From an uncultured Acidobacteriota bacterium (GTDB lineage: Bacteria; Acidobacteriota; UBA6911), in contig CAWEJX010000020.1 in assembly GCA_963809485.1 (NCBI GenBank), positions 672,001-736,000 of the forward strand: DNA of 64,000 nt, in the 5' to 3' direction. The position numbers and the translations under genes were made by a program. The notes beneath the pieces are model-generated. The model did no database searches. It was not told the DNA's origin and saw only the letters and a list, made by a program, of their open reading frames with translations. How positions within the stretch are numbered: position 1 is the stretch's first letter; each line of letters starts with the position of its first letter. Below are positions 3,230 through 64,000 of this stretch, piece after piece.

Positions 3230-3604
3230 GTCAGGCACCTCCGGCAAAGCCGGAGGCTTGAAAGATTGGAACCGCTCAAAGCGGTTGGAGGAGTTTCGCC
3301 GGTCTTGAACGCTGACTTACGCGGGCAAAAGTCGATGAGGCGCTTCCGATCCCCGCAGGGGCCAGCGCTCCGCGCTGGACAGTTTTCTGCGGCGGCACTG
3401 TGGCACGCGCCGTGCGGCAAGGAGATGAAGGATATGAGAAACCGGGCGTTTGCCACAGGGCCGCCGCAGAAAACTCCATCGGAAGCGCCTCATCGGCTTT
3501 TGCTCGCCGACCCTCGCCGAACCATCGGCGTTTCTCAGCGTTTCAAAATACGGAGCTGTCAAACTCTTTGAGTCCCCCGGCAGAGCCGTGGGTTTACCAA
3601 TGGA
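3230..3604 (-). mobile_element. Non-autonomous IS200/IS605-type miniature element (MITE/PATE), copy 1
   Basis: Near-identical to 35528-35925; subterminal hairpins CCTCCGGC-AAA-GCCGGAGG and CCCCCGGC-AGA-GCCGTGGG; ends at TGAC and follows TAAT on the minus strand; no TIR or TSD; no transposase. Confidence 0.8.
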
Positions 3605-3605
3605 A

Positions 3606-5024
3606 TTATTTGGGCACGATCCCGCCCCGGCTTGCGCGTTTTCGAACGTTCCAGAAGTAGAAGACCGGCATGCCCGTCATCACAATGATGAGGCCCGGCC
3701 ATGTATATTTTGGCTTTACCCAGAGGAGGTCCAGCATCACCAGTGATGCCATGATGATGTATATCCCGGGCAGCACCGGGTAGCCGAACGCTTTATAGGG
3801 CCGATCCAGGTCCGGCCGCTTCCTGCGCAGGACAAAGAGCCCGCATACCGTGAGAACATAAAACAGCAGTGCGGCGAAAATTACGTAATCCAGAAGATCG
3901 CTGTACGTGCCGCTGAGCACCAAAAGCGACGCCCAGACGGCCTGGAAAATGAGGGAAAAAACCGGAGTATGGGTTTTGGGTGAGATCCTTGCGGCCCGCT
4001 CGAAAAAAAGCCCGTCCGCCGCCATCGCGTAATAAACACGGGCGCCGGCCAGGATAAGGCCGTTCGCACATCCAAACGTTGAAACCAGAATGGCCAGATT
4101 GATGAAAGTCAATCCCCAGGGGCCCATCAGGCCCTGGGCGGCCAGCGTGCCCACACGGTCTTCAGGCGCCGATGCAATGGCGGCCAGAGGCAAAACTTTC
4201 AGGTAGACTATATTGGTGCAGATAAATATCAGGGATACAGCCGCCGTCCCGACAAACAACGACAAGGGCAGGTTTCGCTTCGGATTTACAACCTCACTGC
4301 CGGTGAAAGTAACATTGTTCCAGGCATCCGAGGAAAACAGCGAACCGACGAGCGTGCCGCCAAAAAGAGCGAGTATCGACAGGCTGATCGAACCGGGAAA
4401 CAAGGAACCGAAATTCCCCCGGACTGCCTCCGGATTTCCGGGGAGCATCAGCCCCAGAATTACGAGCACCAGCAATCCCCCCACCTTCGCGCTGGTGAAG
4501 ATGTTTTGCACGGTCGCGCCTTCCCGCAATCCCAGGCAATTCACCCAGGTGAGCAGGGCAACGACCAAAATTGCCGTGCAATGCTGGCTGGAGATTTGAA
4601 AGCCGAAGGGAAGGATCAAAATTATATTGGATGCGGACACCCAGGGCACAAAAATGCCTGTGAATTTTGCGAAGGCCACTACGACAGCCGCTATCGTGCC
4701 GGTTTGAATGACCAGGAACAGCGTCCAGCCGTACAGGAAACCAAACAGAGGGCCGAAGGCTTCACGGAGAAACACATATTGCCCGCCTGCCCGGGGCATC
4801 GCCGCCGCCAACTCTCCGTAACACAGCGCCGCCATCACGGTCATTACGGCGGCAACTACCCAGGACAGAAGCAGCAATCCGGGCGACATGGTCGTACGCG
4901 CCATATCCGCCGATACGATAAATATGCCGGATCCGATCATGCCGCCCGCGATGATGGCGATCGCATCAAAGAGCTTGAGCCCCTGCACGAGCTGGCCGGC
5001 TTCGCCGGTGTTACCGTCAGACAT
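3606..5024 (-). CDS. APC-family amino acid permease
   Basis: GGMIGSGIF, YGELAAAMPRAGGQYVFL, RPYKAFGYP; about 12 TM segments. Confidence 0.93.
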   Translation of the reverse strand: MSDGNTGEAGQLVQGLKLFDAIAIIAGGMIGSGIFIVSADMARTTMSPGLLLLSWVVAAVMTVMAALCYGELAAAMPRAGGQYVFLREAFGPLFGFLYGWTLFLVIQTGTIAAVVVAFAKFTGIFVPWVSASNIILILPFGFQISSQHCTAILVVALLTWVNCLGLREGATVQNIFTSAKVGGLLVLVILGLMLPGNPEAVRGNFGSLFPGSISLSILALFGGTLVGSLFSSDAWNNVTFTGSEVVNPKRNLPLSLFVGTAAVSLIFICTNIVYLKVLPLAAIASAPEDRVGTLAAQGLMGPWGLTFINLAILVSTFGCANGLILAGARVYYAMAADGLFFERAARISPKTHTPVFSLIFQAVWASLLVLSGTYSDLLDYVIFAALLFYVLTVCGLFVLRRKRPDLDRPYKAFGYPVLPGIYIIMASLVMLDLLWVKPKYTWPGLIIVMTGMPVFYFWNVRKRASRGGIVPK

Positions 5025-35462: not shown

Positions 35463-35527
35463 CATGCGCTTGGAGGCACTCTTTCGCAGCGAAGCAGCGA
35501 GGACGGCCGCGAATAAAAGTTCGCGCA

Positions 35528-35925
35528 GTCAGGTACCTCCGGCAAAGCCGGAGGCTTGAAAGATTTGAACCGCTCAAAGCGGTTGGACTAGTTACGCCGG
35601 TCTTGAACGCTGACTTACGCGGGCAAAAGCCGATGAGGCGCTTCCGATCCCTGCAGGGGTCAGCGCTCCGCGCTGGACAGTTTTCTGCGGCGGCACTGTG
35701 GCAAGCGCCGTGCGTCAAGGAGATGAAGGGTATGAGAAACCAGGCGTTTGCCACAGTGCCGCCGCAGAAAACTCCATCGGAAGCGCCTCATCGGCTTTTG
35801 CTCGCCGACCCTCGCCGAACAAAACGGCGTTTGTCAGCGCTTTTGTCAGCGTTTCTCAGCGTTTCAAAATACGGAGCTGTCAAACTCTTTGAGTCCCCCG
35901 GCAGAACCGGGAGTTTACCAATGTA
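35528..35925 (-). mobile_element. Non-autonomous IS200/IS605-type miniature element, copy 2
   Basis: Near-identical to 3230-3604 with extra GTCAGCG units; follows TAGT on the minus strand and ends at TGAC. Confidence 0.8.
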
Positions 35926-36006
35926 ACTAATCGGTGTATATCATCGGCAATCAATCAAGGTCAGGCCCCCGGCTTGCCCAGGCAGCCTGAATCGGGGAGC
36001 TTCGGC

Positions 36007-56280: not shown

Positions 56281-56513
56281 AATTCCTCCTCGTAATAAAA
56301 GCCTCAAAACCCTACAATTCTGGCATATAACGAGATCAGATTCAACTACCGGCGACGGGGCGGAAGCCCACGGACTCGTTTCCAAAGGATACTAGTATTA
56401 GGGGTAAGGAGCTGATTTAATATCTCCCCTTAACCCCAAACCATTGAATATATAAATAATAGCAGAATTCTCCAAAAAAATCCCCATAATTTGGATTTGG
56501 AAGCCTTTTCTTA

Positions 56514-56593
56514 TCAGCGTTTCTCAGCGTTTCAAAATACGGAACTGTCAAACTCTTTGAGTCCCCCGTCAGAGCCGGGGGTTTACCAATGTA
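56514..56593 (-). mobile_element. Left-end fragment of the IS200/IS605-type miniature element (copy 3)
   Basis: Matches the last 80 bp or so of copies 1 and 2; follows TAAT on the minus strand. Confidence 0.75.
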
Positions 56594-56670
56594 ATTACCA
56601 GTTTATTTATGCCGGTCTGCGACACTTCGCCACGGAATTCTCCGAGAAATACGGATTAGGCTGTGCGGAA

Positions 56671-62861: not shown

Positions 62862-62900
62862 GTCAAGCACCTCCGGCAAAGCCGGAGGCTTACCAATGTA
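62862..62900 (-). mobile_element. 39-bp minimal form of the IS200-type element (both tips, one hairpin), copy 4
   Basis: GTCAAGCACCTCCGGCAAAGCCGGAGGCTTACCAATGTA = right-end tip and hairpin fused to the left-end tip; adjacent ATTA holds the pyrC stop. Confidence 0.75.
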
Positions 62901-62901
62901 A

Positions 62902-64000
62902 TTACAGGCTCCAGACAACCTTCCCCTTCACCACGGTCATCGCCGGGCCGCCTACCAGCTTCCAGCCTTCAAAAGGGGTATTGCGGCTGCGTGAGCAGAA
63001 TTCGCCGGCATGCACTTCCCAGCTGAGCTCGGGATCAAGGACGGTAATGTCGGCCCAGGAGCCTTTGGCCAGAGTCCCCCGCTGCAGTTTGAGTATGCGG
63101 GCCGGATTGGTTGAGAAAAGCTGCACGAAACGCTCCAGGGTGAGGGTCCCCGGCCGCACGAAACGGTCGTAGATCAGGCTGACGGCTGTCTCGAGGCCAA
63201 CGATGCCGAAGGGAGCGCGGTCGTACTCGAGCATTTTGTCATTGATGTTGTGAGGCGCGTGGTCGGTGGCGATGACATCGATATCCCCGGAGGCGATTCC
63301 CTTCACCAGGGCGTCCACATCGTCCCGCGAGCGGAGAGGCGGATTTATCTTGGTGTTGGTGTCATAGGTCGACACCATGGCATCCGTCAAAAGAAGGTGA
63401 TGCGGCGTTGCTTCGCACGTAAGGGGGATCCGGTCTTCCTTCCTGGCTCGCACGACCGCATTGAGGGAGCGCCGCGTGGACAAATGGGCGATATGCACCT
63501 GGGCACCGGTCTGTTGAGCAAGGATGGCGTCCCGGATGACGTGCAGTTCCTCCGCGGCCGGATTCATTCCCCGCAACCCGAGCACGGTCGAGTAATACCC
63601 CTCGTGCATCACGCCGCCGGCCGCCAGGTCCCTGTCCTCACAATGATCGATGACAGGCAGGCCGAACAGCCGCGAATATTCCATGGCGCGCCGCATGACC
63701 TGGCTGTCCTGCACGGGGTGACCATCGTCGCTGACCGCGACGATTCCCGCCCGGTACATCTCCCCGATCTCCGCGAGGGTTTTGCCCTGGCTGCCTTTGG
63801 TGATGGCCCCGACCGGATACACAGCGGACTTGGAAACATCCCGGGCCCTGTCCAGGATGAAGGCAGTGACGGCCTCGGAATCGTTCACGGGCTGTGTGTT
63901 CGGCATGCAGGCGACGCCGGTATAGCCTCCGCGGGCCGCGGCGTTGACGCCTGTTTCAATCGTTTCGGCGTCTTCGCGCCCGGGCTCTCGCAGGTGGGCG
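62902..64000 (-). CDS. pyrC: Dihydroorotase (multifunctional-complex type); 5'-truncated by window edge
   Basis: HLREPG (window edge), MPNT.PV.D, SDDG, HCED, HIAH.S, E.TPHH, K.NPPLR, ATDHAPH, S.NTPF. Confidence 0.95.
   Translation of the reverse strand, partial: AHLREPGREDAETIETGVNAAARGGYTGVACMPNTQPVNDSEAVTAFILDRARDVSKSAVYPVGAITKGSQGKTLAEIGEMYRAGIVAVSDDGHPVQDSQVMRRAMEYSRLFGLPVIDHCEDRDLAAGGVMHEGYYSTVLGLRGMNPAAEELHVIRDAILAQQTGAQVHIAHLSTRRSLNAVVRARKEDRIPLTCEATPHHLLLTDAMVSTYDTNTKINPPLRSRDDVDALVKGIASGDIDVIATDHAPHNINDKMLEYDRAPFGIVGLETAVSLIYDRFVRPGTLTLERFVQLFSTNPARILKLQRGTLAKGSWADITVLDPELSWEVHAGEFCSRSRNTPFEGWKLVGGPAMTVVKGKVVWSL

Follow-up and report, generated by a model that had tools for sequence, protein, structure and literature searches.

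The stretch of DNA analysed here (the window, 64,000 nt, corresponding to positions 672001–736000 of contig C20 of the source genome, G000) carries four copies of a short, hairpin-bounded element, all read on the minus strand, which are very probably non-autonomous derivatives of an IS200-type insertion sequence (IS), namely palindrome-associated transposable elements (PATEs), the IS200/IS605 counterpart of MITEs, the miniature transposable elements with inverted repeats. PATEs of the IS200/IS605 family were first named in Haloquadratum walsbyi (PMC3119063). They are an already known kind of bacterial mobile DNA, and the family described here shows every testable defining feature of a PATE. 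In the current study, exact element boundaries, a fixed target and insertion without duplication were observed, as were an orientation bias that flips at dnaA, homology of the element ends to those of IS200 elements and covariation between guide and cleavage sequences.

A preliminary description of the window had reported four related copies with subterminal hairpins and neither terminal inverted repeats nor target-site duplications. This was borne out, as all four stretches were found on the minus strand at the places given and are mutually related, the two ends of the element are dissimilar, and four seamless empty sites were recovered. The observation is thereby confirmed, and its interpretation as a family mobilised in trans by a Y1 transposase (TnpA) encoded elsewhere is supported, with three corrections.

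Element boundaries and target site

Copy 2 (35528–35925, minus strand) is a full 398-bp element of the TAC subfamily, reading TAGT (35926–35929), then TACATTGG...CCTGAC, then T. Its left subterminal hairpin (35895–35913), the stem of which is weakened by substitutions, follows the guide TAAA (35914–35917), and its right subterminal hairpin (35536–35554) lies between the guide CAAG (35555–35558) and the cleavage tetramer TGAC (35528–35531). The centre is occupied by a long imperfect palindrome predicted to form a rod-like hairpin (35621–35801), which is not derived from IS200 and in which the short forms of the family carry their deletions. Copy 1 (3230–3604, minus strand) is a 375-bp long form of the TCC subfamily with a 23-bp internal deletion relative to the 398-bp consensus, and reads TAAT, then TCCATTGG...CCTGAC, then T. 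The TAA (3606–3608) of its target tetramer TAAT (3605–3608) is the stop codon of a minus-strand open reading frame (ORF) of 472 amino acids (aa) at 3606–5024. The left guide TAAA (3593–3596) of this copy stands immediately 5' of the left hairpin (3574–3592; CCCACGGC-TCT-GCCGGGGG), and the right guide CAAG (3257–3260) precedes the right hairpin (3238–3256; CCTCCGGC-TTT-GCCGGAGG) and the cleavage tetramer TGAC (3230–3233), which forms the final 4 nt of the copy. Copy 4 (62862–62900, minus strand) comprises 39 nt, the outermost 11 nt of the left end (LE) being joined to the hairpin of the right end (RE) and TTGAC; it is preceded by its target TAAT (62901–62904), the TAA of which is the stop codon of the ORF at 62902–63906, and followed by T.

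The extents originally given for copies 1, 2 and 4 stand, and that of copy 3 was revised to about 56511–56593 (minus strand), an LE fragment of approximately 83 nt preceded by TAAT (56594–56597), for which the genome-wide LE and RE matches contain no right end nearby. An A+T-rich stretch at 56400–56510 adjoins this truncated copy and may mark the event that removed the remainder of it. The flanks are as first read, with TAAT before the left end of three copies and TAGT before that of copy 2, and all three copies that possess a right end close in TGAC followed by T. No fifth copy was found in the window among the LE and RE matches.

The source genome (6,035,645 bases in 21 contigs, from an assembly estimated at 95.67% completeness) was searched by BLAST with 60-nt end probes, yielding 267 LE and 279 RE matches, seven of the latter representing the opposite strand of a palindromic hairpin. 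The four nucleotides preceding LE are TAAT in 152, TGAT in 36 and CAAT in 12 of the 267 matches. Among 201 well-aligned LE, position −4 is T in 182, position −3 is A in 158 and G in 37, position −2 is A in 195 and position −1 is T in 196, and positions −5 to −10 show no bias. A single tetramer class, and not random tetramers, therefore flanks the copies when both ends are searched genome-wide, in agreement with the preliminary description, and this tetramer flanks the left end only. The final 4 nt of RE are TGAC in 227 of 279 matches, and the first base 3' of RE is T in 184 of 228 (approximately 81%), as it is in most related IS200 copies, so that the preferred target is effectively the pentanucleotide T(A/G)AT^T. 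The element thus runs from TACATTGG to CCTGAC; the target contributes T(A/G)AT and the T that comes next, and insertion occurs exactly 3' of T(A/G)AT without duplication.

These boundaries were examined in a congener, G006, whose family members are approximately 93% identical to those of the source genome and whose flanking DNA is 85–91% identical. It had been anticipated that empty sites in a relative would retain TAAT without duplication, and four empty sites that retain T(A/G)AT were found between the two genomes, in each of which the flanks are contiguous, the position of the tetramer is kept and nothing is gained or lost. At C4:324631 the source genome reads contiguously ...TGAT-TACGAC..., and G006 (locus L095) carries TGAT, the element and TACGAG; the remaining three lie in contig C18 of G006, opposite the source-genome copies at C20:576601, 581887 and 587445, with flank length unchanged. 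When the flanks of 24 G006 copies were searched in the source genome, both flanks fell on one contig for 17, most of which are occupied at the same site; one of the 24 (L095) is cleanly empty and two more are roughly empty but diverged. Since excision in an IS200/IS605-type family is seamless, an empty site cannot distinguish gain from loss; the element moved either way. Copy 2 is absent from G006, where the locus is rearranged and only the right boundary is clean.

Metagenomic data were examined as assembled contigs (24 runs listed, with shares of 0.30 or less), and the family occurs in great abundance in four runs from soil, wetland and sediment. Contigs of all four runs depart from the reference precisely at 35527/35528 and 35925/35926 and continue into numerous distinct flanks. 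In run X3 a contig of 1,923 nt aligns to the sequence on either side of copy 2 and passes over the element, and 63 other nucleotides stand at the joint. A classical MITE, dependent on a DDE transposase, was ruled out as there are neither terminal inverted repeats nor target-site duplications. Copies also abut stop codons: in 33 of 188 (17.6%) the insertion falls right at the stop codon of an ORF of 100 codons or more, compared to 5.7% of control T(A/G)AT sites, an excess that we do not claim as a target preference as it may only reflect the survival of harmless intergenic insertions.

Pairing each LE with the next RE on the same strand within 450 bp gave 225 pairs, of which 96 measure 370–399 bp, 128 measure 160–290 bp and one, of 39 nt, is spurious. 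There are in addition nine pairs of more than 2 kb, representing neighbouring partial copies, and 33 LE and 53 RE without a partner; a local BLAST of copy 2 against the genome returned 106 alignments longer than 300 nt. The short forms correspond to the long form with differing deletions inside the central palindrome, and identical deletion joints occur in metagenome contigs. Each end carries an 8-bp G+C stem with a 3-nt loop; on the left the hairpin begins 12 nt in from the tip, and on the right it stops 8 nt short of the tip. These hairpins are conserved across the genome-wide LE and RE matches. The two ends do not form inverted repeats, LE (TACATTGGTAAAC) having nothing in common with the reverse complement of RE (GTCAGGTACCTCC). 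As single-stranded DNA the element is predicted to fold into one hairpin at the left, two at the right and a long rod between them, at −133.6 kcal/mol (z = −14.2 against 100 shuffles), with both strands folding equally well. The orientation of the central loop is inverted between subfamilies (TAC..., 51 in orientation A and 2 in B; TCT..., 2 in A and 15 in B), and in long copies (e.g. window positions 35690–35740) this has the appearance of a flip-flop-like inversion between the TAC and TCT subfamilies. At 399 bp or less the element is too short for a transposase. An internal bottom-strand ORF of approximately 120 codons, on which no Pfam search was made, was considered as a gene and rejected, given that at least 100 codons are kept in 56 of 91 long copies, which by a rough estimate approximates neutral decay.

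Guide and cleavage sequences

In IS608 of Helicobacter pylori, the left cleavage tetramer TTAC lies 19 nt 5' of the foot of the left hairpin and the right cleavage tetramer TCAA lies 10 nt 3' of the right foot, the guides being the four bases 5' of each foot, AAAG on the left and GAAT on the right (PMC3201880, PMC3597680). Judging from these four sequences as published, pairing of cleavage bases 1, 2 and 4 with guide bases 2, 1 and 4, respectively (C1:G2, C2:G1, C4:G4), appears to be the only canonical scheme that fits both IS608 ends. The same pairing, which the preliminary description had applied, fits the ends of the present family, with TAAA opposite TAAT and CAAG opposite TGAC, and, as detailed below, the covariation seen among related IS200 elements. 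Under this rule a TGAT flank would form a G-T wobble and a CAAT flank a mismatch at one pair. The third base of the tetramer had been described as N, which does not hold: A occupies this position in 195 of 201 flanks, and TGAC has A there as well. In IS608 the third cleavage base is unpaired but touches the first one (the T-4/A-2 contact; PMC3201880), and A at this position fits such a contact rather than a free N.

A covariation test was performed by reading the ends of related IS200 loci. The right-end set comprised 84 loci, 12 of which lack a hairpin and 2 of which lack TNAC, leaving 70 usable loci in which the guide was compared with the first TNAC past the foot. The combinations obtained were AAAG with TTAC (49 loci), GAAG with TCAC (10) and CAAG with TGAC (8), together with three register-shifted loci. 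All 67 register-clean loci therefore lie on the diagonal, and no off-diagonal pair was found among them. The two loci without TNAC (AATC...TTAG and AAAT...TTAA) also fit, although these are single copies that were judged by eye. These data support the notion that the guide/cleavage rule applies to the family and covaries across related IS200 lineages, in so far as can be judged from sequence comparison.

Two further arrangements were noted at such ends. In 12 copies of the family (e.g. at C20:616313, C20:1190751 and C5:40276 of the source genome) the 4 nt just before the right hairpin are missing, which changes the right guide from CAAG to CTTG. At locus L184 (approximately 1000–1030), in a metagenome-assembled genome (MAG) labelled Alphaproteobacteria, the LE of an IS200 abuts the RE of another copy (TTAC) in a tandem or circle-junction-like arrangement which mismatches its own left guide.

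Parent insertion sequence, orientation and history

The preliminary description had proposed to look for an autonomous tnpA bounded by the same hairpins. Such elements exist in two congeners, in both of which they are broken, and in intact form at a third locus, L128; no intact one was found in the source genome. In G007 (contig C580) LE, tnpA and RE follow one another in this order on one strand, beginning with TAAT, TTAATCAGGTAAAC, the hairpin and GACTCACAGAGTTTGACA, but tnpA contains an in-frame TGA and RE is truncated. The element in G002 (contig C286) is arranged likewise; its tnpA carries a 5' deletion, and the element extends as far as the end of the contig. L128, from an unrelated MAG labelled Burkholderiales, has an uninterrupted TnpA frame (150 aa read from GTG), and its ends are 93% (LE, over 42 nt) and 92% (RE, over 61 nt) identical to those of the family, with TAAT, TAAA, CAAG and TGAC all shared. 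The IS200 5' leader motif GAGTTTGACA is present in family elements, and a CCGCTTTGAGCGG hairpin before RE is common to the family and to the IS200 of the L128/G007/G002 type. Since the IS200 elements of G007, G002 and L128 carry homologous ends, guides and cleavage tetramers included, the family is, judging from these sequences, an IS200 that has lost tnpA (approximately 0.6–0.7 kb in those elements) and holds a palindrome in its place. Y1 matches occur in 25 of 30 genomes of the genus, and IS200 with the ends of the family in two (G007 and G002). A regular-expression scan of 29 tnpA loci of the genus identified the same two only, one further match (L048) being spurious, as it is the right-end hairpin of another IS200 lineage. 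Against a collection of species-representative genomes, the best 80 loci, L128 included, matched G002 TnpA at 66–73% identity, and no closer intact parent is among them.

A profile search of the source genome for the Y1 transposase family (PF01797) returned four matches. One is an IS200-type pseudogene of a second lineage at C6:298400–299000 (locus L031, 1340–1960), which carries a TAG in frame and whose 3' part is truncated, with an integrase-like ORF in its place; its LE reads TAAT, TCGCATTAGGGTAAAC, the hairpin and GACTCGAAAAG, with the target TAAT and the guide region GGTAAAC as in the family and a different hairpin. This IS200 type occupies different sites in the source genome and in G006, and that lineage must therefore also have moved after the species split. 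A further match is an IS200 fragment at 492 kb of C20. The others are a conserved 279-aa Y1-like gene, a type also found in congeners without the family, and a 150-aa gene at C15:225606–225986 (locus L032, 1100–2200) that resembles a transposase associated with repetitive extragenic palindromic sequences (RAYT, REP). Arrays of three other short hairpin repeats (e.g. GGCCGCGTAGCGGCC, CCCGGCCTTTCAAGGCCGGG and CCGTCGCGTGAGCGACGG) lie on both sides of this C15 gene, and together they look like a separate REP-RAYT system. Within 6 kb of the four Y1 genes only one family end was found, an unrelated LE 3.2 kb from the C6 pseudogene.

The orientation of the copies is strongly dependent on the contig, with minus/plus counts of 55/3 on C20, 19/1 on C1, 0/14 on C6 and 9/0 on C16. 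On C7 it flips at dnaA (454563–455039, plus strand), with 9 minus and 2 plus copies to the left and 9 plus and 2 minus copies to the right (Fisher p = 0.009). If dnaA is taken to point away from the origin, the element would have its top strand on the lagging-strand template in both arms. In addition, the top strand coincides with the G-rich strand for 161 of the 225 copies, and for 60 of 75 where the absolute skew exceeds 0.02. The original paper on such a bias is that of Ton-Hoang and colleagues. Preference for the lagging-strand template has been reported for IS608 and ISDra2 (PMC3597680; PMC6006769).

Comparison with G006 also provides information on the age of the copies. Copy 1 is present at the orthologous site, through which an 8-kb alignment runs at 89% identity, and it must thus predate the split. 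The orthologous site of copy 4 (L098) holds a whole 237-bp copy. Copy 4, which had been listed as one of four related copies, is consequently a core deletion in place between two similar hairpins and not a transposed mini-element; three more fusions of this kind occur among the RE matches (C16:120642, C20:213139 and C4:66701). Of five copies within a 17.5-kb stretch of the source genome, G006 shares one and lacks three, the fifth being ambiguous, and the three absences indicate movement after the species split. The 91 long copies (385–400 bp) show a median identity of 97% to the consensus, and no pair exceeds 99.0%; this divergence would fit a burst after the split followed by silence. No contig of the source genome ends within an element or a tnpA, and searches by tblastn with three TnpA queries add no tnpA to the four profile matches, on which grounds the family now looks orphaned in the source genome, within the limit of an incomplete assembly. 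With the IS copies of the congeners broken and no cognate tnpA in the source genome, the proposal of mobilisation in trans by a Y1 TnpA would hold for the past, and is not demonstrable for the present.

Proposed mechanism, alternatives and significance

According to the mechanism that we favour, each copy would retain only what a Y1 (HUH) TnpA needs at two ends, that is a 12-nt linker, the 4-nt guide TAAA and an 8-bp hairpin on the left, and the guide CAAG, an 8-bp hairpin, a 4-nt linker and TGAC on the right, with a palindrome unrelated to tnpA in between. By analogy with IS608, a TnpA supplied in trans would bind both hairpins on the top strand when this is single-stranded at the replication fork, and the guides would pair with the cleavage tetramers (C1:G2, C2:G1 and C4:G4). 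The top strand would be cut at two points, just 3' of the flanking T(A/G)AT and just 3' of TGAC, and would leave as a circle, to be re-inserted 3' of another T(A/G)AT, usually one followed by T, on the lagging-strand template and without duplication. Catalysis by TnpA, the circular intermediate and the identity of the acting TnpA are the parts of this scheme that we infer.

Several results weigh against this reading. The left-end test failed when a strict Watson-Crick foot was imposed (8 of 74 loci), and the eighth pair of the left hairpin is mismatched in most lineages. When the foot was placed 8 nt ahead of the loop, which is its position in the right hairpin, the tetramer expected from the guide was found 4–16 nt upstream in 64 of 70 loci, but this register was picked after the failure of the strict foot and is the only one in which the test works. 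The corresponding controls gave 9.3 with guides of the wrong class and 11, 4, 19 and 9 with arm lengths of 6, 7, 9 and 10, respectively. In that register AGTT, AGAT and AGGT go with CTAA; AGAC, AGGC and AGTC with CTAG; TAAA with TAAT; and TAAG with TAAC; in multi-copy genomes homology begins at the predicted left tetramers. With so few covariation classes, themselves related by phylogeny, the counts overstate independence, and within the family, where guide position 1 was compared with flank position 2, covariation is not significant (guide C, 3 G and 6 A; guide T, 32 G and 139 A; Fisher p = 0.38). The 12 copies with the guide CTTG span several subfamilies and both size classes, with one of the three predicted pairs broken, which may reflect recurrent deletion, gene conversion or a mismatch that is tolerated. 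GC skew is weak in the source genome, and contig C8 is of mixed orientation (13 plus, 19 minus). Both congener copies of the cognate IS are broken, and an intact cognate tnpA was found in the source genome neither with the PF01797 profile nor with tblastn, in an assembly whose incompleteness makes a missed copy possible.

It may be asked whether the copies are not IS200 relics at all but REP/REPIN-type repeats kept by a single-copy, domesticated Y1 transposase of the source genome. REPs and bacterial interspersed mosaic elements (BIMEs) are likewise hairpin repeats related to Y1 enzymes, present in high copy number and similar in their hairpins to IS200/IS605 ends (PMC3333891); the source genome contains the C15 gene between its hairpin arrays and the conserved 279-aa gene, and the family resembles REPs in being abundant and intergenic, the 39-nt terminal-only forms especially so. 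However, REPs are described as single hairpins of 20–40 nt with a 5' tag, often in inverted pairs around one RAYT gene (PMC3333891), whereas the present elements measure 200–400 bp, do not form inverted REP doublets, lack a GTAG/CGTC tag and have two distinct ends, homologous to IS200 LE and RE and accompanied by the IS200 leader motif. The hairpins around the C15 gene are moreover of different sequence, no family end lies near that gene, with which the family shows no link, and the 279-aa type occurs in congeners devoid of the family. This origin is accordingly considered very unlikely. Even less probable, to the point of being barely credible, is that these are structured non-coding RNA genes or regulatory hairpins such as terminators which merely resemble transposon ends. 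The great stability of the fold and the position of copies downstream of genes, 33 of 188 being on the stop codon itself, would suit such a role, but the fold is equally good on either strand, as DNA palindromes would have it, no run of T follows the hairpins, the internal ORF survives at about the neutral rate (a rough estimate), presence/absence polymorphism shows exact boundaries at a fixed target, and orientation follows replication and flips at dnaA. No Rfam family reached the gathering score in the whole window, and a permissive search with copy 2 (E up to 10) gave only chance-level matches to miRNAs and others. An omega-RNA-bearing PATE, with a TnpB or IscB guide RNA at the right end, was also considered and rejected, there being no match to PF07282 (TnpB) in the source genome, where no separate search was made for IscB, and none to Rfam at gathering score.

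A different question is whether an IS200-derived family might still be mobile in the source genome through cross-mobilisation, either by a Y1 enzyme that is not its cognate or by a tnpA copy absent from the assembly. Movement since the species split, the C6 pseudogene with its identical target and guide region and a lineage that also moved after the split, and the incompleteness of the assembly all speak for this, and Haloquadratum is reported to have strain-specific PATE insertions even though all of its IS200-type genes are pseudogenes (PMC3119063). Very recent copying is nonetheless argued against by the lack of any pair above 99.0% identity among the long copies, the only IS200-type tnpA genes of the source genome are broken and no contig ends in an element, and we therefore regard continued mobility as unlikely. 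More specifically, the 150-aa RAYT-like protein, the 279-aa Y1-like protein or read-through of the TAG in the IS200 gene might still move the family, and, separately, the palindrome of approximately 180 nt could be cargo under selection, favouring the extrusion of single strands and thereby mobility; we consider these proposals decidedly speculative. If the former were true, it would constitute natural cross-mobilisation between IS200 ends and a domesticated transposase.

As non-autonomous IS200 derivatives, the elements may be compared with established systems, in so far as these are covered by the published accounts cited. Like the PATEs of Haloquadratum, they include terminal-only versions formed by core deletion between two similar hairpins (52 bp there, 39 nt here), and their copies outnumber and outlive the transposase genes (PMC3119063). 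They differ from those PATEs in their bacterial host, in a parent of the IS200 type with tnpA only, as opposed to IS1341 or a tnpB-bearing IS605-type element, in a central palindrome of approximately 180 nt as cargo and in a strand bias relative to replication, which was measured here. With IS608 they share subterminal hairpins, a 4-nt guide 5' of each foot, T-N-A-N tetramers, insertion 3' of the left tetramer without duplication and the lagging-strand-template bias (PMC3201880, PMC3597680); their tetramers are TAAT and TGAC in place of TTAC and TCAA, the distances from cleavage site to foot are 12 and 8 nt in place of 19 and 10 nt, they carry neither tnpA nor tnpB, and they are known from sequence alone. 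A limited search of the PATE literature retrieved haloarchaea, Halanaerobium and Geobacillus-type systems and none for Acidobacteriota-like hosts.

What the present family adds to the PATEs already known is the flip in orientation at dnaA, the natural covariation of guide and target, and its orphan state; the mechanism as known is unchanged by these findings. The 225 paired copies amount, by a very rough estimate, to 70 kb, or about 1% of the 6 Mb of a bacterial genome from soil or wetland, and annotators should mask the family and refrain from calling its internal ORF a gene. The copies furthermore mark the direction of replication across the contigs of a draft genome. Finally, the comparison across natural IS200 lineages supports the rule set biochemically for IS608 and offers a simple means of predicting the target of IS200-group elements.

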